This document shows, in pieces, positions 2,634 through 63,458 of a stretch of DNA of 64,000 nucleotides (positions within the stretch are counted from its first letter, which is position 1; every line of letters begins with the position of its first letter). The stretch comes from Candidatus Moraniibacteriota bacterium (GTDB taxonomy: Bacteria; Patescibacteriota; Minisyncoccia; Moranbacterales; UBA9337). Below the pieces are notes generated by a model. That model saw nothing but the letters and a program-made list of their open reading frames with translations, did not search any database and was not told the DNA's origin. The DNA is taken from the NCBI GenBank assembly GCA_028695135.1, contig JAQVJM010000004.1, positions 1,696-65,695 of the forward strand. The letters are read 5' to 3'. The translations under genes were made by a program, and so were the position numbers.

Positions 2634-3105
2634 TAAATCCGAAATACGAAGTGCGAAATTCGAAACAAATCAAAATGACAGAAAACAAAAATACAAAAAA
2701 ATTTGATTTAGAGGATCGCACTTTTAAATTTGCTAAAAATGTCAGAGTATTTGTCAAAAAAATTCCCAAAAGCATTTCTAATTTTGAAGATGGGAAACAG
2801 CTGGTGCGTTCCTCCGGTTCTGTTGGTGCGAATTACATAGAGGCCAATGAATCTTTAGGTAAGAAAGATTTTCTGATGAGAATTAAAATTTCCAGAAAAG
2901 AGGCTAAAGAAAGTCGATTTTGGTTAAATTTAATAGATATTGGCAATGAGAAAGAATTGTAAAAGGAAAGAAATGATCTTGCCAATGAAGCGACAGAACT
3001 AATGATGATATTCGGACCCATTATTAGAAAATCAGAATAAGTTTAGAATTTTAATTTTTAGTTATTATTTCGGATTTCGAGTTTCGAATTTCGTATTTAA
3101 GACTT
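2634..3105. mobile_element. small cargo element: four-helix-bundle (23S rRNA intervening-sequence family) gene flanked by ~30-bp imperfect terminal inverted repeats built from CGAAAT(A/T)CGAA units
   Basis: left end CCGAAATACGAAGTGCGAAATTCGAAAC (2636-2663); right end TTTCGGATTTCGAGTTTCGAATTTCGTATTT (3063-3093) is its approximate reverse complement. Confidence 0.55.
2651..2962 (+). CDS. four-helix-bundle protein (23S rRNA IVS-associated protein family)
   Basis: family-typical segments EDRTFKFAKNV..KIPK, GANYIEANE, SRKEAKESRFWLNLI; 103 aa. Confidence 0.75.
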   Translation: MRNSKQIKMTENKNTKKFDLEDRTFKFAKNVRVFVKKIPKSISNFEDGKQLVRSSGSVGANYIEANESLGKKDFLMRIKISRKEAKESRFWLNLIDIGNEKEL

Positions 3106-4005
3106 ATGGCTACCTTGTATAATCAATCAGACAGGAATAAACGCTTGACCTGGATCTATATCACAGGCTTTTTGGTGTTTGTCATCGGCGTGGGATATGT
3201 TTTCGCCGGGGCGATGGGAAACAGCTGGATACTTTACGGAGCGGTCATATTTTCCGTGCTTATGAGCTTCTCTTCTTATTGGTGGAGCGACAAGATCGTT
3301 CTCTCTATGAGTGGAGCCAAAGAAGTCACCCGTGAGAACGCCAAGGAGATTTATCGCATCGTTGAAAACCTCTGTATAACTGCCGGGCTTCCGGTTCCCA
3401 AGATTTATATTATTGAAGACAGCGCTCCCAACGCTTTCGCGACTGGTAGAGATCCCGAGCATGGAGTCATATGTTTTACGACCGGGATCATCCAAAAACT
3501 TGAGAAAGCGGAATTGGAAGGGGTTGTTGCTCATGAGCTTTCCCACATAGGCAATCGCGATGTACTCCTCTCGACAGTCGTTGTCGTGCTTGTCGGATTT
3601 GTAACGCTTCTGGCTGATTGGTTCCGCCATTGGGCTTTTTGGGGAGGAAGGTCGAGAAACAACGAAGGCGGAGGACAATTGCGCCTGATACTGATCGTTC
3701 TGGCGATCCTGCTTTCCATACTGGCTCCGATCGCGGCGATGCTGATGCAATTGGCGATTTCGAGAAAGAGGGAATTTCTGGCCGATGCAGATGGGGCGCT
3801 TCTTACTCGTTATCCCGAAGGGCTGGCGAGAGCCTTGGAAAAGATCTCTTCCGACCAAGAACCGCTGGAAGCGGCCAATCGCGCCACGGCTCATCTCTAT
3901 ATCGCCAATCCTTTCAAAGGCAAAAAAGCCTCCAAGTTTTTTATGACCCATCCTCCGATCGAGGAAAGGGTGGCTAAATTAAGAGGATTGGATGTAAATA
4001 GTTAA
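3106..4005 (+). CDS. htpX: zinc metalloprotease HtpX (M48 family)
   Basis: HELSH zinc motif, N-terminal TM helices, HtpX-like length and C-terminal MTHPPIEERV. Confidence 0.9.
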   Translation: MATLYNQSDRNKRLTWIYITGFLVFVIGVGYVFAGAMGNSWILYGAVIFSVLMSFSSYWWSDKIVLSMSGAKEVTRENAKEIYRIVENLCITAGLPVPKIYIIEDSAPNAFATGRDPEHGVICFTTGIIQKLEKAELEGVVAHELSHIGNRDVLLSTVVVVLVGFVTLLADWFRHWAFWGGRSRNNEGGGQLRLILIVLAILLSILAPIAAMLMQLAISRKREFLADADGALLTRYPEGLARALEKISSDQEPLEAANRATAHLYIANPFKGKKASKFFMTHPPIEERVAKLRGLDVNS

Positions 4006-4419: not shown

Positions 4420-4860
4420 ATGCAGTTCAAACGGCCGGAAAATACGGATAAATATTATTGGACCCGTCACAGTATCGGGAAGATGATGCAATACGGACTG
4501 AGCGCCCAGAGAGTGATCAGGGTTATCAGAAGTTATACAAGGATAGAGGAGGGCATAGCGGAAAACACGATTGCGGTGATGCAGCCGACTTCCACCCGCA
4601 GGGACAAGGATGGAGAGCTTAAGTGGAACCAGGAGATATGGGTGATGTATCAGCTCCGACGCAAGGTCGGAGCAAATTCCAAAAAACAAATTCCAAATTC
4701 CAAACAAATCTCAAAATCAAAATTCAAAAATCGAAAAACAATTCCAAATTCTGCGAATGGAAAAATTCGCATCATCAGCGCTTGGAAGTTTCCGGGAATG
4801 AGTCCGAAAAGCAATCCGATTCCCAGGGAAATATTGGAGGAGATTGAGGATGTATTATAA
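4420..4860 (+). CDS. DUF4258-like putative toxin-domain protein with an in-frame AT-rich repeat insertion (codons ~85-120)
   Basis: N-terminal TRHSIGKMMQYGLSAQRVIRVI resembles the T-x-H-[AS]-x-x-R-M-x-x-x-G-[IL]-S-x-x-x-V signature of DUF4258; the repeat segment translates as NSKKQIPNSKQISKSKFKNRKTIPNS. Confidence 0.45.
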   Translation: MQFKRPENTDKYYWTRHSIGKMMQYGLSAQRVIRVIRSYTRIEEGIAENTIAVMQPTSTRRDKDGELKWNQEIWVMYQLRRKVGANSKKQIPNSKQISKSKFKNRKTIPNSANGKIRIISAWKFPGMSPKSNPIPREILEEIEDVL

Positions 4861-14577: not shown

Positions 14578-14617
14578 AACTTCAAATAATATTTTAAATC
14601 AGAGCCTTCTGTTTTTG

Positions 14618-14750
14618 AGTTGATAATCTACGGACGTAAGTACGAACGTACTTACGTCCGTAATTACGTCATTAAAAAAGAGACGTCCGACGTATGCAGA
14701 CGTCGGACGTCTGTGAGAATCTGTGAGAAAAATAGAGACAAGGCATGCCT
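14618..14750. repeat. cluster of three perfect palindromes (16-bp, 12-bp and 12-bp stems) between the convergent typA and phosphohexomutase genes
   Basis: GGACGTAAGTACG-AA-CGTACTTACGTCC; GACGTCCGACGT-ATGCAG-ACGTCGGACGTC; AGAGACAAGGCA|TGCCTTGTCTCT (the last is a minus-strand terminator with a T-run); the first has a relative at 30078. Confidence 0.6.
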
Positions 14751-27204: not shown

Positions 27205-27278
27205 TCTACGAAATTACCTGCCCGAAATGCTACGCATATCGTTGCAGGCGGGCAAATCCATTGCAAATATACGAATTA
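27205..27278 (+). repeat. copy A of a ~70-95-nt intergenic repeat family (core ...TACCTGCCCGAAATGCTACGCATATCGTTGCAGGCGGGCAAATCC-TTGCAAAT-TACGAAT)
   Basis: about 90% identical to copy B at 28596-28680; the two flank the 27338-28600 gene as direct repeats. Confidence 0.7.
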
Positions 27279-28600: not shown

Positions 28601-28680
28601 CAACCCGCAAATTTACCTGTCCGAAATGCTACGCGTATTGTTGCAGGCGGGCAAATCCTTTACAAATCTACAAATTTTTT
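28596..28680 (+). repeat. copy B of the intergenic repeat family (full form with internal hairpin)
   Basis: CAACCCGCAAATTTACCTGTCCGAAATGCTACGCGTATTGTTGCAGGCGGGCAAATCCTTTACAAATCTACAAATT. Confidence 0.7.
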
Positions 28681-30033: not shown

Positions 30034-30077
30034 TCAAACCCGTCTATCTTTTAAAAGGTTCGCGGTTATTTTTTTAT

Positions 30078-30104
30078 GACGTAAGTACGTACATACTTAC
30101 GTCC
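30078..30104. repeat. palindrome GACGTAAGTA-CGTACA-TACTTACGTC, relative of the 14622-14650 palindrome
   Basis: 10-bp perfect stem sharing the GACGTAAGTAC arm with the element downstream of typA. Confidence 0.6.
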
Positions 30105-30196
30105 GCTTCTCTTATTGACTTATGCTCCATTTATATTTACGATAGATGATAGTTGAATACTTGAGGGAAGGAGGAAGCTGAAAAAAGGAGTGTAAT

Positions 30197-33712: not shown

Positions 33713-33868
33713 CCTTTATGAAGTACGAATTTTAAGAATGTACGAATTAGGCGATAAATAATTTTAAGTTGGATTCTTATGATAATTTATATTGATTGGA
33801 TAAATAAAGAATTACATAGCTTATGATATTCGTAATTTCGTATAAGTTCGTAATTCGTAGAGATTAAC
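33713..33868. mobile_element. MITE-like cargo-less element with (T)ACGAATT-unit inverted repeats between infA and rpmJ
   Basis: left GAAGTACGAATTTTAAGAATGTACGAATTAGG; right ATTCGTAATTTCGTATAAGTTCGTAATTCGTAG (reverse-complementary units); same unit family as the TIRs at 2634/3063. Confidence 0.4.
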
Positions 33869-36717: not shown

Positions 36718-36829
36718 TCGAAAGATCCGAAGATGTTCCGATGTTGTTATGTGTTATGATTTCGTAAATATCGGAAGCGAATATTCGGAAAAATTATAAC
36801 GATGCAACAGTCGGAACAGTTACAATAAT

Positions 36830-42565: not shown

Positions 42566-43483
42566 TCATATCGTTATTTTACAAACCCTTCTTTTTCCGG
42601 CCAGGTCTTTGTAAAATTTGACCTTGGCTTTCGGAAAATAATTTTTTATGATTTTTTCGAGCTTATTTTTTTGTTCGGGAGAAATTTCAAAGAAAATCGC
42701 AAATCGCAAATCGCAAATCGCAAATCTTTCAGATATCTGCTTCAGCAATTTTTCATAGTGAGCGAGGCCGTAATTTTCAGAATAAAGCGAGGATCCCGGT
42801 TCGTATTTACTTACATCTTTCGGGGAAGAAGCATATATTTTTTTTGAGAGATAAGGAAGATTGGCGGCGATGATTAGCTTATCGAGCTTTAGCTTCGTCA
42901 GCTTCTCAGTTAGCGGCGAAAGGAGACTGCCATGAATGAATTTTATGTTTCGTGCGACATTATGTCTTTTGGAATTTTTTCTAGCTATTTTTAAAGCCAT
43001 TCTCGAAACATCGATTCCGTAAAGCTCATGATTATTATTTTTTGATTCCAATCGCTTTGCGATTGAGACAATGATATTCCCGCTTCCGGTACCTATGTCA
43101 CAAATCGCGTATCGCGTATCGCTCAACTTTTTATTTTTCTTAGTTATCCCAGTATTTTCTTGTCCCTTGTCGCTTGTCGCTTGCTTCAGAACGAGATCCA
43201 CGATCAATTCCGTTTCCGGCCGGGGAATGAGCGTGTGCTTGTTGACCTCAAAATCCAACCCATAAAATTCTTTGTGTCCCGTTATATATGCGATCGGCTC
43301 GTGTTTCATCCTTCTTTTTAAAAATGATCCAAGTTTTGCGTTTTGCGTTTTGCGAATCTCGTATTCAGGATGCGATAAAACAAACTCCCGCGGTTTTTTA
43401 ATCGCATGAGAAATCAAAATCTCCAGGTCTAGTGGAGATAATTTTTCATAATATTTTTTTAAAATGTCGGATATTCTGCTCAT
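42566..43483 (-). CDS. prmC: release-factor glutamine N5-methyltransferase PrmC (HemK); carries three heptamer microsatellites in frame
   Basis: SAM motif DIGTGSGNI, catalytic NLPY (NPPY variant); immediately downstream of prfA on the same strand. Confidence 0.8.
   Translation of the reverse strand: MSRISDILKKYYEKLSPLDLEILISHAIKKPREFVLSHPEYEIRKTQNAKLGSFLKRRMKHEPIAYITGHKEFYGLDFEVNKHTLIPRPETELIVDLVLKQATSDKGQENTGITKKNKKLSDTRYAICDIGTGSGNIIVSIAKRLESKNNNHELYGIDVSRMALKIARKNSKRHNVARNIKFIHGSLLSPLTEKLTKLKLDKLIIAANLPYLSKKIYASSPKDVSKYEPGSSLYSENYGLAHYEKLLKQISERFAICDLRFAIFFEISPEQKNKLEKIIKNYFPKAKVKFYKDLAGKRRVCKITI
42694..42726. repeat. (AAATCGC)x4.7 heptamer tandem repeat inside prmC; related tracts (ATCGCGT)x2.7 at 43104-43122 and (TTTTGCG)x3 at 43334-43354
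   Basis: seen in sequence; all lie inside the prmC reading frame (peptides AICDLRFAIF, RYAICDIG, TQNAKLG). Confidence 0.8.
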
Positions 43484-55071: not shown

Positions 55072-55920
55072 ATGTTTGATTCACACGCTCATGTAAATTT
55101 CAAGGCCTTTAAAGATGATGGAGACGATGTTATAAAGAGGTCTTTAGAAAGCAATACCTTTATAATTAACGTTGGCTCACAGTACAGTACAAGCCAGCGA
55201 GCTGTTGAATATGCTCAAAAATTTGAAACTGGAGTGTGGGCGGCCGTAGGGATTCATCCGATTCATATAAAAGTTAAAAGTGAAAAGTTAAAAGTCGAAA
55301 GTTCCACCCCCTCTCAATCTCCCCCTCAGGGAAGGGGAGAAGTTTATTTTGAAGAATTTGATTATGGTGAATACAAAAAATTAGCGGAAAATGAAAAAGT
55401 AGTGGCGATTGGAGAAGTCGGGCTGGATTATCATCACTTTGACGGGGTAACCGGAATTTCAGAAATAAAAGAAAAACAGAAGAAAGTTTTAAAAGAATTT
55501 ATCAAGCTTGCTAATGAAGTGAAAAAACCAATGGCTATTCACTGCTGGGATGCTTATGATGATTTATTTGAAATACTAAGAAAGAATCCAATTGAAAAAA
55601 GAGGGGTGGTGCACAGTTTTATTGGAAGCTGGAAGACGGCGCAGAAATTTATTGAAATGGGATACAAAATCGGACTCAATGGAATAATCACCTATTCGGA
55701 ATCTTATGATAAGCTTATCCGAAATATTGACTTGAAAGATGTCTTGATCGAGACTGACTGTCCGTATCTCAATCCCAAACCTCTGCCAAGAGAAGATAGA
55801 AATGAACCGATAAATGTAAAGTATGTCGCCCGAAAAATTTCTGAAGTAAAAGGGATTGAGATTGATGAAGTTGAAAGAATTACAGCCGAAAATGCCAAAA
55901 AATTATTCAAAATAAGATGA
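55072..55920 (+). CDS. tatD: TatD-family metal-dependent DNase/hydrolase; carries an in-frame composite repeat insertion
   Basis: DSHAHVNF start, GIHP, EVGLDYH, HCW(D), HSF(IG) motifs. Confidence 0.85.
   Translation: MFDSHAHVNFKAFKDDGDDVIKRSLESNTFIINVGSQYSTSQRAVEYAQKFETGVWAAVGIHPIHIKVKSEKLKVESSTPSQSPPQGRGEVYFEEFDYGEYKKLAENEKVVAIGEVGLDYHHFDGVTGISEIKEKQKKVLKEFIKLANEVKKPMAIHCWDAYDDLFEILRKNPIEKRGVVHSFIGSWKTAQKFIEMGYKIGLNGIITYSESYDKLIRNIDLKDVLIETDCPYLNPKPLPREDRNEPINVKYVARKISEVKGIEIDEVERITAENAKKLFKIR
55265..55345 (+). repeat. in-frame composite insertion in tatD: AT-rich (AAAGTTAAAAGTGAAAAGTTAAAAGTCGAAAG) unit plus GC-rich palindrome (CTCCCCCTCAGGGAAGGGGAG)
   Basis: translated as KVKSEKLKVESSTPSQSPPQGRGE between conserved GIHP and EEFD blocks. 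Confidence 0.7.
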
Positions 55921-57066: not shown

Positions 57067-57140
57067 GATTGATCATTAACCATTGATCATTAATCAATGT
57101 CGAATGTCTAATGATTAATGCTCAATGTTTAATATTTAAT
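57067..57140. repeat. atp-operon spacer motif cluster (TGATCATTAA x2, CATTAATCAATG, CTAATGATTAATG, GCTCAATGTTTAAT)
   Basis: atpB-atpE spacer; palindromic ATTAATCATT-type units seen in sequence. Confidence 0.7.
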
Positions 57141-57514: not shown

Positions 57515-57605
57515 TAATGATTCTGATTAATAAAATTAATCATTAATCATTAACCATTGATCATTATCATTTTTCGCTTAGTGCTCAATGTTTAATGTTT
57601 AATAA
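57515..57605. repeat. atp-operon spacer motif cluster (AATTAATCATTAATCATTAACCATTGATCATTA; GTGCTCAATGTTTAATGTTTAAT)
   Basis: atpE-atpF spacer. Confidence 0.7.
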
Positions 57606-57611
57606 AAAACA

Positions 57612-58100
57612 ATGGAATTACTAGAAAATTTAGGGATAAATGGAAAAATATTATTGGCTCAGGTGGTGAACTTCTTCATTTTATTCTGGATCCTAAAAAA
57701 ATTTGCCTATAAGCCCGTTTTAAATTTACTGGAGGAAAGAAGCAAAAAAATTGAAAAAGGACTTAAAGATGCGGAGGTTGCCCGGAAGAAACTTGAAGAA
57801 ACCGAAATTGAAAGTAAAAAAATATTGTCTGATGCCAGAAAACATTCTCGAGAAATAATAAAAGAAGCTGAAATTCGGGCGGAAACCAGCAAAAGGGAAA
57901 TCGCCGAAGAGACAAAGCATAAAGTCGATAAGATGATTTCTGATGCGAAGAAAAAGATAGAAGAAGAGAAGGACAAGATGGTGGTGGAAGTCAAAAATGA
58001 GGTTGCCGACCTAGTGTCTCTGGCTACGGAAAAAGTGCTGGAAAAAAAAGCGGATAGCGAGGATGATAAAAAAATTATTAAAAAAGTTATTGAAAATTAA
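57612..58100 (+). CDS. atpF: F0F1 ATP synthase subunit b
   Basis: single N-terminal TM then a long charged helix; position in the operon. Confidence 0.85.
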   Translation: MELLENLGINGKILLAQVVNFFILFWILKKFAYKPVLNLLEERSKKIEKGLKDAEVARKKLEETEIESKKILSDARKHSREIIKEAEIRAETSKREIAEETKHKVDKMISDAKKKIEEEKDKMVVEVKNEVADLVSLATEKVLEKKADSEDDKKIIKKVIEN

Positions 58101-58144
58101 GCATTAAACATTAATCGTTGAGAATATCGATTAATGATCAATGA
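58101..58144. repeat. atp-operon spacer motif (GCATTAAACATTAATCGTTGAG = reverse complement of CTCAACGATTAATGTTTAATGC; CGATTAATGATCAATGATTGA)
   Basis: atpF-atpH spacer. Confidence 0.7.
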
Positions 58145-58567
58145 TTGATAAATAATGTCATGCGCATCAGCGCCAAGCAATATTCCAAAGCTCTGTATGA
58201 TCTCACTAAGGGCAAGGATGAAAAGGAATTAGATTCCATTGTTTTTAATTTTGCAAGCGAGCTGAGAAGAAGGAGAAAGCTCAATTTATCGGATGATATA
58301 ATGAAGATTTTTTCTGAAATTTATAACAAGGAGAACAGAATTATGGAAGCGGAAATCGTGAGCGCCAGGGAAATCGGCAATGAACAAATGATTGGAATAA
58401 AAAACTTCCTGAAGAACAAATATGGCGCCGATAAAGTCATATTGGATCCAAAAATGGATAAAAATATAAAAGGAGGGATAATAATCAGAATGGGAGAGGA
58501 TATAATTGACGGAAGTATTTTAAAAAAAATGAAGAAGCTTAATAATTTATTAAAAAATAATGTTTAA
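58145..58567 (+). CDS. atpH: F0F1 ATP synthase subunit delta (OSCP), short form
   Basis: operon position between b and alpha; C-terminal GGIIIRMGEDIIDGSI delta signature. Confidence 0.75.
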   Translation: MINNVMRISAKQYSKALYDLTKGKDEKELDSIVFNFASELRRRRKLNLSDDIMKIFSEIYNKENRIMEAEIVSAREIGNEQMIGIKNFLKNKYGADKVILDPKMDKNIKGGIIIRMGEDIIDGSILKKMKKLNNLLKNNV

Positions 58568-60130: not shown

Positions 60131-60226
60131 ATTAATTATTAAACATCAAACATTAATCATTGAGCATTAAATACCCATATTTTTATATCAATAATGATTG
60201 ATGATGAACAATGAATAGTTAACGAA
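60131..60226. repeat. atp-operon spacer motif cluster (AACATTAATCATTGAGCATTAAAT; CAATAATGATTGATGATGAACAATGAAT)
   Basis: atpA-atpG spacer. Confidence 0.7.
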
Positions 60227-61790: not shown

Positions 61791-61885
61791 CCCACGAAAC
61801 TACAAATCCCATACAAATCTACAAATATATAAAAATAAATTTCTCATTTGTAGCTTTGCAGCAGAGTTGTAAATTCGCAGTTAAT
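61788..61885 (+). repeat. copy D of the triple-TACAAAT intergenic repeat family (AACCCACGAAACTACAAATCCCATACAAATCTACAAAT...TTTGCAG...TTGTAAATTCGCAG)
   Basis: co-linear with copy C (28755-28850) over ~95 nt; lies between the CYTH gene and atpD. Confidence 0.7.
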
Positions 61886-61906
61886 AAAATAATTTAAAAA
61901 ACTTAA

Positions 61907-63367
<1,461 letters not shown>

Positions 63368-63458
63368 TTCATCATTTATCATTAAATATTAATCAATCAT
63401 TATGATATGGCTTAATTGTACCCGATGTTTAATGATTAATAATCAATGATTAATTAAA
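63368..63458. repeat. atp-operon spacer motif cluster (ATTAATCAATCATT; CCCGATGTTTAATGATTAATAATCAATGATTAATT)
   Basis: atpD-atpC spacer. Confidence 0.7.

Follow-up and report, generated by a model that had tools for sequence, protein, structure and literature searches.

A decaying four-helix-bundle gene between complementary heptad arrays in the lemA-htpX spacer of a Candidatus Moraniibacteriota bacterium: a probable stem-loop cassette of the intervening-sequence type

The stretch of Candidatus Moraniibacteriota DNA analyzed here (64,000 nucleotides, hereafter the window) has a GC content of 40%. The nearest relatives of its HtpX (87% identity) are Candidatus Moranbacteria/Moraniibacteriota, which belong to the candidate phyla radiation (CPR). 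In the window, lemA (2070-2633) and htpX (3106-4005) are separated by a 472-nt segment that carries a four-helix-bundle (4HB) gene of the PF05635/TIGR02436 family. The present study concerns this gene and the two complementary arrays of seven-nucleotide units (heptads) that enclose it, which we refer to as the arms. The features of the locus, together with a hairpin elsewhere in the window, are as follows (ORF, open reading frame).

2070-2633, + strand: lemA, the upstream neighbor (PF04011, E 9.9e-62); the left arm follows directly on its stop codon TAA (2631-2633)
2634-2668, + strand: left arm, approximately five heptads (AAATCCG AAATACG AAGTGCG AAATTCG AAACAAA), an inverted repeat and period-7 array
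2675-2962, + strand: truncated 4HB ORF, 95 codons and a premature TAA (PF05635, TIGR02436), 100% identical to P0001
2960-2962, + strand: nonsense codon TAA at codon 96, GAA at the aligned codon of locus L001
2963-3040, + strand: in-frame 3' remnant of the ORF, 25 codons (last helix) and the original stop codon (3038-3040)
3065-3099, + strand: right arm (ATTTCGG ATTTCGA GTTTCGA ATTTCGT ATTTA), complementary to the left arm, an inverted repeat and period-7 array
3106-4005, + strand: htpX (M48 peptidase), the downstream neighbor (PF01435, E 1.1e-32); its ATG lies 6 nt past the right arm
33714-33862, + strand: hairpin without cargo between infA and rpmJ, with TACGAAT-family heptad arms (z -3.9)

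The 4HB product matched PF05635 with 48.2 bits (cut-off 33.8, E 1.4e-12) and TIGR02436 with 65.9 bits (cut-off 24, E 3.4e-18). The latter match extends over profile positions 3-108 of 109, reads through an internal stop, and covers residues 14-120 of the read-through product; a tblastn match covers 2675-3037. The nearest solved structure is 2rld (E 1.2e-9). These matches, together with those of the neighbors to PF04011 and the M48 peptidases, agreed with a first-pass annotation of the window, which placed a 23S-IVS-family gene between lemA and htpX. However, the 103-aa protein described there does not hold because the GTG at which that ORF begins lies within the left arm. The start consistent with the family is the ATG at 2675, from which the ORF runs for 95 codons to the TAA at 2960-2962 and is followed by 25 in-frame codons. 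The orthologue in GW2011_GWF2_35_54 (L001) has GAA at codon 96 and encodes an intact 121-aa protein; therefore, the window copy carries a GAA>TAA nonsense mutation. The window gene is a member of a 121-codon family that is now a truncated gene or pseudogene, and it lacks an intact four-helix ORF of approximately 120 aa. NCBI annotates it as a 95-aa 'four helix bundle protein' (P0001), which is found on five contigs. The protein is basic (isoelectric point 9.2-9.8), and its homologue Xcc0516 is a homopentamer (cited in PMC4990558).

The two arms (2634-2668 and 3065-3099) are each 35 nt in length, are 80% complementary, and consist of heptads of the AAATNCG type. Their duplex energy was -28.2 kcal/mol, compared with -11.0 +/- 3.0 in shuffled sequences, and 0/1000 shuffles were as good, which substantiated the inverted repeats claimed around the gene. 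Spacing of approximately 0 nt on both sides had also been claimed; the left arm begins 0 nt past the lemA stop codon, and the right arm stops 6 nt before the htpX ATG. Tandem AAATNCG heptads occupy 2635-2665, with the last one located 9 nt upstream of the 4HB ATG at 2675. The motif CGAAATWCGAA has three matches in the 64 kb, every one in the cassette arms, against 0.17 expected. In the minimum free energy fold of the whole element as RNA, the termini are paired (11 + 12 bp, one mismatch), and this was also the case in L001. No terminator on the + strand and no T-run terminator were found in the lemA-htpX interval, in which promoter-like matches were no more common than in shuffled sequence. 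A scan with Rfam detected tRNAs only and no rRNA in the window. The neighbors with a family match in the window are MurE, DUF212, LemA, HtpX, and a tRNA, and the remaining neighbors are without a Pfam match.

We consider it probable, at roughly 60%, that this feature is a degenerating copy of a widespread stem-loop cassette of the intervening sequence (IVS) type, which would be excised at the RNA level. Such a cassette comprises a gene of approximately 121 aa for a PF05635 protein (Avd-like 'IVS protein') within two complementary arrays of approximately five heptads, which together fill the spacer between co-transcribed genes.

The evidence for this reading comes largely from the subfamily of the window gene, which we labeled 4HB-A. 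A homologue search gave at least 8000 scored matches, hundreds of which were at 70-79% identity and nearly all of which were 121 aa in length. They include metagenome-assembled genomes labeled Planctomycetes and Pseudomonadota; on both contigs, the gene lies between unrelated genes and has the same CGAAAT-type arms. We sampled 80 metagenome loci with a contig GC content of 31-66%. In these loci, the 4HB-A gene is preceded by approximately AAATCCGAAGCACGAAATCCGAAACAAATTCAA+ATG, approximately ATTGTTTCGGATTTCGATATTCGAATTTCGGATTTA follows downstream, and the arms of the window match this consensus on the left and right alike. The heptad type is concordant between the two sides: CGAAAT on both in 44 loci, CTAAAT on both in eight, and mixed in none. 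An ungapped arm complementarity score of at least 12 was obtained in 48 of 74 loci, against 0/74 in shuffled sequences and 0/59 in control flanks; strict counts of CGAAA/TTTCG units underestimate the arms. RNAduplex energies did not discriminate between flanks and control flanks because GC-rich coding controls fold strongly, and the ungapped score was used instead. In an alignment of 38 sequences, four stem pairs alternate between G-C (27-28 sequences) and U-A (7-9 sequences). At the leuC-leuD junction, arms of the CG type are present in one locus (L133) and those of the CT type in ten others. These alignments and counts show both the sequence of the arms and their left/right complementarity to be conserved, and they show gene and arms as a unit inherited and spread as one across phyla.

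The median ratio of nonsynonymous to synonymous substitutions (dN/dS) in the 4HB-A protein was 0.11, and the proportion of synonymous sites that differ (pS) was 0.77-0.86, which indicates saturation. The heptad cores are conserved even though synonymous sites are saturated, and, therefore, the arms are selected in their own right. Judged from these ratios, the protein is shown to be under purifying selection overall, with individual copies decaying. Both neighbors are co-directional with the 4HB gene in 30/38 loci. The median distance from the upstream stop codon to the 4HB ATG is 42.5 nt, and thus the arm, of approximately five heptads across the family, fills the spacer. One metagenome contig with a GC content of 49% (L142, 2380-5360) carries three cassettes, in the spacers after leuC, leuD, and leuB, each with different heptads, and the third copy is a pseudogene. 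In its middle cassette, the left arm (GGGTCAG heptads) overlaps leuD at its 3' end, and its translation is GSGIRGRESAGPER. We also considered whether a complement lying past the stop codon could sequester the start codon; this was the case in 5/77 loci and 1/77 shuffled sequences, and the idea was dropped as a general feature.

It is very improbable that the window simply contains an ordinary small gene with chance or terminator-like hairpins, or the leftover Avd gene of a diversity-generating retroelement. The co-conservation of arms and gene over the 80 metagenome loci, against none in the controls, already contradicts this explanation, and the spacer lacks a T-run terminator. Avd is a basic pentamer that, jointly with reverse transcriptase, binds nucleic acid (PMC10053308). 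Its four-helix-bundle fold family is homologous to that of the window protein, and related 4HB proteins are weakly similar to bAvd and the Avd PHROG; the genome is also rich in intergenic hairpins. In contrast to Avd, the window gene stands alone in an operon spacer. Neither a reverse transcriptase nor template or variable repeats were found near the cassette, and the neighbors in the window and related loci are housekeeping genes. PADLOC gave no match of the 4HB protein to an anti-phage defense family.

The lemA-htpX junction was compared among 80 Moranbacteria loci retrieved with HtpX, 77 of which keep lemA upstream of htpX. The spacer is empty in 12 loci, with a length of 31 nt or less (1-31 nt, e.g., TTTTAA-A-ATG). 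In approximately 38 loci, it is 53-272 nt in length and mostly contains long hairpins of repeated short units, the sequence of which is specific to the genome. Eleven loci have a spacer of 418-492 nt, nine of which contain a 4HB gene; the two others (L012 and L063) contain other ORFs. These nine comprise L001, which carries the orthologue of the window gene (same subfamily) with CGAAAT-type arms, seven loci with a second 4HB subfamily flanked by GTTCTAG/CTAGAAC heptads, and L056, which has a third kind of 4HB gene that is a pseudogene with in-frame stops. The spacers of 640-860 nt in ten loci were rejected as elements because they contain an unrelated gene for a 200-250-aa protein, mostly with an N-terminal hydrophobic segment. 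All ORFs of the 80 Moranbacteria loci and the window were searched with a profile, which identified 13 4HB genes; complementary heptad arrays lie on both sides of 13/13 and directly adjoin the neighboring genes. The heptads of these 13 genes are specific to the locus (CACAAAC, GACTAAA, TGTATAG, ATTTAGA, and others).

The states of the junction are patchy on the HtpX tree, and sister genomes differ. L001 has the cassette, whereas L003 has a 153-nt spacer; a cassette in L020 contrasts with a hairpin in L029, and the empty junctions of L055 and L042 contrast with a hairpin in L066 and a cassette in L056. The first-pass annotation had proposed this comparison with relatives, and it revealed a cassette that is present or absent among sister genomes. 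The flanking genes of L001 and L003 are approximately 99% identical; however, the whole spacer, the last few lemA codons, and the first few htpX codons differ. This difference between alleles resembles the outcome of homologous recombination through the flanking genes, with one allele replaced by another, more than that of transposition. Two other spacers of this junction, in L058 (175 nt) and L077 (143 nt), can be aligned over their full length with a 4HB-A cassette minus its ORF, with 75% column identity, and that of L058 retains the leader, the ATG, and five codons. On this alignment, there are derivatives of the 4HB-A cassette that have lost the ORF and resemble MITEs (miniature transposable elements with inverted repeats). 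The comparisons show that the cassette occupies operon spacers and turns over quickly, and that individual ORFs decay.

The mobility of the cassette may be explained by a DNA transposon or MITE. In this case, a transposase supplied in trans, or the 4HB protein as a DNA-binding cofactor, would bind the arms as terminal inverted repeats, and the cassette would enter short spacers by cut-and-paste or hairpin-directed insertion. The conservation of arm sequences across phyla and contexts fits this explanation, as do the ORF-less spacers of L058 and L077 and the occurrence of several cassettes at one locus. Tandem or remnant arms adjoin the cassettes in L082, L103, L123, L132, and L151, and the dispersed TACGAAT family described below has as many as five copies within 9 kb. 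However, no transposase or integrase was found in or next to the cassettes in the loci inspected. No target-site duplication was visible between empty (TTTTAA-N1-9-ATG) and occupied lemA-htpX sites, at which the arm ends (TAAAT...ATTTA) are palindromic and overlap the stop codon. Furthermore, arm heptads are wholly different among 4HB subfamilies, and the segment replaced between L001 and L003 takes in the last codons of lemA and the first codons of htpX, as predicted by homologous recombination. Near-identical multiple copies per genome were not seen in the 64-kb window, in which tblastn and a motif search detected one copy only. We regard transposition of this kind as unlikely. The arms are better described as RNA-stem-forming heptad arrays than as terminal inverted repeats in the transposon sense. 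The first-pass annotation suggested a mobile IVS-like element; its recurrence in many unrelated contexts with a GC content of 31-66% speaks for this, whereas a second window copy, a transposase, and a target-site duplication were not seen.

Heptad arrays are not confined to 4HB genes. The window contains 27 period-7 tandem arrays, compared with 0.3 in shuffled sequence, and, thus, the cassette arms are one instance of a broader class. Many intergenic spacers of the window have hairpins of such period-7 units, with a unit specific to the locus (e.g., 14630-14670, 36718-36829, and 61791-61912). The infA-rpmJ hairpin (33714-33862) shares the 17-mer GTTCGTAATTCGTAGAG with L002, in which the arrays bracket lemA. 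It had been described, at 33713-33868, as a cargo-less element built from the CGAAAT(A/T)CGAA units of the cassette; the hairpin is real, whereas its units are TACGAAT. The idea of a MITE derivative survives in the ORF-deleted spacers of L058 and L077, but not in this hairpin, which belongs to the TACGAAT family (consensus CTCTACGAATTACGAATnnnTACGAATGTACGAAT). Members of this family were found at 10 or more Moranbacteria loci, and 9 kb of L039 contain five copies. Its complementary arrays bracket lemA in L002 (3361-3404 and 3874-3908) and pyk in L039 (5990-6023 and 7470-7503), resembling rRNA processing stems, and one array lies in frame within a FemAB-like ORF. A Nostoc 4HB gene (L182) has arms of a similar unit, (AATTCGT)x4 and (ACGAATT)x4. 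In the ATP synthase operon of the window, five intercistronic spacers (57067-57140, 57515-57605, 58095-58157, 60131-60226, and 63368-63458) have hairpins of the CATTAAT/CATTGAT/AATGTTT heptad family. Arms in different spacers of this operon are mutually complementary and could bracket atpE and atpF.

These arrays bear on the idea of a module for mRNA processing or regulation that serves the host and is not a selfish element. Complementary heptad arrays would be addresses that loop out single cistrons in the manner of rRNA processing stems, and the basic, pentameric 4HB protein would bind one subunit per heptad and control cleavage, stability, or translation. The bracketing of lemA, pyk, and atpE/atpF, the excess of period-7 arrays, and the presence of a different heptad in each spacer within one operon are in line with such a function. 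So are the purifying selection on the protein, the conservation of heptad cores despite synonymous saturation, and the combination of a high isoelectric point, a homopentameric homologue, and approximately five heptads per arm. However, the cassette is patchy among sister genomes, and 12 junctions are empty. The ORFs in the window, in L056, and in the third L142 copy are pseudogenes, and the S23p protein of the Coxiella 23S rRNA IVS was reported not to be detectably made (PMC4990558). The binding of heptads by 4HB proteins is putative. We consider a host-serving module to be quite unlikely.

An IVS-type cassette is favored by the resemblance to the rRNA elements. The Coxiella burnetii 23S IVS is 428 nt in length with an S23p ORF and a 28-bp terminal stem; two to three tandem GACAGAT heptamers immediately precede the S23p ATG, the first repeat is the site of RNase III cleavage, and the S23p ORF is in decay (PMC4990558). 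PF05635 ORFs are also present in rRNA insertions of CPR bacteria (PMC11270868). The window cassette shares with the 23S IVSs of Coxiella burnetii, Leptospira, and the Xanthomonas/Brucella S23p type a PF05635 ORF, a total length of approximately 430-480 nt, and complementary termini with a stem of approximately 25-30 bp. Tandem heptamers directly before the start of a decay-prone ORF (PMC4990558), ORF-less versions at the same sites, and a sporadic distribution among relatives (PMC4990558, PMC11270868) are common to both. The RNA fold check suggested by the first-pass annotation pointed in the same direction, with paired termini and a layout that matches that of the Coxiella 23S IVS. Unlike the rRNA elements, the window cassette lies between protein-coding cistrons and not in 23S helix 9, 25, or 45, its subfamily has a strongly conserved arm sequence common across phyla, and its excision by RNase III is proposed from layout.

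Based on this homology of layout, we propose that the arms pair into a helix of approximately 23 bp in the lemA-4HB-htpX transcript. RNase III may then cleave the helix, as in Coxiella, which would release the cassette RNA and part the flanking cistrons. The lemA stop codon and htpX start codon would come to lie a few nucleotides apart at the helix base, approximately as in empty sites. This geometry may render insertion nearly neutral in operon spacers, as at the tips of rRNA helices. Close relatives appear to swap junction alleles by homologous recombination through the flanking genes.

Several observations weigh against an IVS-type cassette. In the consensus helix, 4-6-bp CGAA(A)/(U)UUCG blocks alternate with variable, often mismatched triplets; since it is interrupted every heptad, many copies would be poor RNase III substrates. 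Counts of G-U and A-C in the stem favor an RNA strand no more than DNA. The conservation of heptad cores exceeds the need of a generic double-stranded RNA substrate and may point to a partner that binds them sequence-specifically; the basic, pentameric 4HB protein itself is a candidate. Similar arrays bracket lemA and pyk and lie in frame inside ORFs; therefore, the arrays live independently of the 4HB gene. No 4HB cassette of this kind was found inside an rRNA gene in the sampled loci. For the present organism, we infer RNase III cleavage by analogy; no RNase III signature was found in the window, a 64-kb sample that is uninformative on this point. Seven conserved 16S/23S motifs were absent from all of the approximately 170 loci examined, and an Rfam scan of 20 of these loci detected tRNAs only and no rRNA. 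The statement that the family is normally found inside 23S IVSs is thus an artefact of naming; most occurrences of the protein family are outside rRNA.

Heptameric repeats in other bacteria have a similar appearance. Xanthomonas has approximately 70 convergent pairs of GGGAATC heptamers, with heptameric repeats over-represented (PMC4692102), and TAACTGA repeats are spread over Beggiatoaceae, Cyanobacteria, and Bacteroidetes (PMC4679880). The over-representation of heptamers in bacteria was left unexplained (PMC4692102, PMC4679880). Similar to the cassette arms, these repeats and the short tandemly repeated repetitive (STRR) sequences of cyanobacteria are intergenic tandem 7-nt units that often adjoin start codons; they often form convergent pairs capable of stem-loop formation, and length and sequence vary among close relatives (PMC4692102, PMC4679880). 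Exactly such arrays flank Nostoc 4HB genes. The two studies draw no link to a PF05635 gene or an IVS, whereas complementary pairs enclose the 4HB gene here. The origin of IVSs and the role of the conserved ORF were termed unclear in the 2016 study of Coxiella (PMC4990558). We found no literature link between the 4HB gene and heptad arms beyond that description of the Coxiella IVS, which is no proof that none exists.

We tentatively propose, as a doubtful extension, that PF05635 cassettes are a distinct class of transposase-less selfish elements in many phyla, the hallmark of which is complementary heptad arrays. Their native niche would be the intercistronic spacer, and rRNA IVSs would be rare members that landed in rRNA. 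The excess of heptamers (STRR, GGGAATC, and TAACTGA) would largely be their footprint, comprising arms, solo arms, and ORF-less derivatives. Propagation or protection of the element would involve the pentameric 4HB protein, which would recognize its own approximately five heptads.

Two other types of element invite comparison. Similar to repetitive extragenic palindromic (REP) sequences and REPINs with their REP-associated tyrosine transposase (RAYT), the cassette consists of a gene flanked by a short intergenic palindromic repeat in inverted copies, and the repeat is also found where the gene is absent. However, RAYT can be recognized as a tyrosine transposase, whereas a catalytic motif is missing from the 4HB protein, and each REP is a single palindrome instead of a heptad array. 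Rickettsia palindromic elements are small palindromic insertions that are tolerated in frame inside protein-coding genes. We know of no protein gene associated with them. The in-frame heptad arrays of HemK-, TatD-, MurE-, and FemAB-like ORFs are comparable, but differ in sequence and architecture.

Among these, a HemK/PrmC-like methyltransferase ORF (42566-43483, - strand; family assigned by eye) contains four in-frame period-7 arrays (42687-42732, 43095-43125, 43153-43188, and 43326-43364), one of which is AAATCGC x5, with the minus-strand reading RFAICDLRFAIF; this arrangement resembles intragenic insertions of palindromic elements. In-frame arrays of AAATTCC and AAAAGTT heptads occur at 73-200 (MurE ORF 2-835), 4670-4750 (ORF 4420-4860), and 55264-55304 (TatD-like ORF 55072-55920); their translations are low-complexity peptides, such as NSKFQIPNKSKIPNQKFQ. 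The position of the MurE insert is common to the window, L015, and L039, whereas the sequence differs. In L039, the peptide WTSNVHNGH(L/S)MS, coded by the GC-rich palindrome GGACGTCC..., occurs in two unrelated proteins (FemAB-like and MurE; 81-1229 and 1345-2751), which suggests a second family of in-frame palindromic insertions. GC-rich palindromes akin to it are present at 14608-14683 and 30075-30110 of the window. A motif of approximately 50 nt, ACCTGCCCGAAATGCTACGC(A/G)TAT(C/T)GTTGCAGGCGGGCAAATCC, is repeated in two consecutive intergenic regions of the window (27210-27250 and 28601-28660).

The architecture also occurs in cultured organisms. A tblastn search of plasmids found 4HB genes mainly in Nostocales, and inverted heptamer arrays that are perfect or nearly so (scores of 26-39) are present in 6 of the 12 loci inspected; other loci have one-sided or degenerate arrays. 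The arms are (CAATTCG)x4 and (CGAATTG)x4 in Nostoc punctiforme pNPUN02 and (AATTCAA)x4 in N. flagelliforme and Aulosira. In Anabaena cylindrica pANACY.01 (L173), Nostoc sp. TCL26-01 (L176), and Pseudanabaena galeata (L180), the 4HB gene either separates cas2 from cas1, on the opposite strand, or immediately precedes cas1. The family 23S_rRNA_IVP has reportedly been called cas-associated, and these loci may account for that report. On a Chondrinema litorale plasmid (L183), a 4HB gene (299-655) is situated between the adaptor and permease genes of a resistance-nodulation-division (RND) efflux operon. The heptads on its flanks are of the TAACTGT/ACAGTTA type and resemble the TAACTGA repeats known from Beggiatoaceae, Cyanobacteria, and Bacteroidetes.

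In conclusion, the finding is real and more general than was thought in the first-pass annotation: an element of the IVS type outside rRNA. It has practical consequences for annotation because the arms yield spurious low-complexity peptides, split operons, and cause assembly breaks, and the Pfam name '23S rRNA-intervening sequence protein' misleads for most family members. The architecture is abundant, considering that the subfamily of the window alone has at least 8000 close homologues, and is present in cultivable cyanobacteria and ordinary operons. The processing of arms by RNase III, the binding of heptads by 4HB proteins, and insertion polymorphism among strains become testable by standard methods. 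The present results link IVSs, heptameric repeats, and Avd-like proteins in one architecture. The window cassette has the same build as the protein-coding 23S IVSs, which suggests that those elements may live mostly between ordinary genes.

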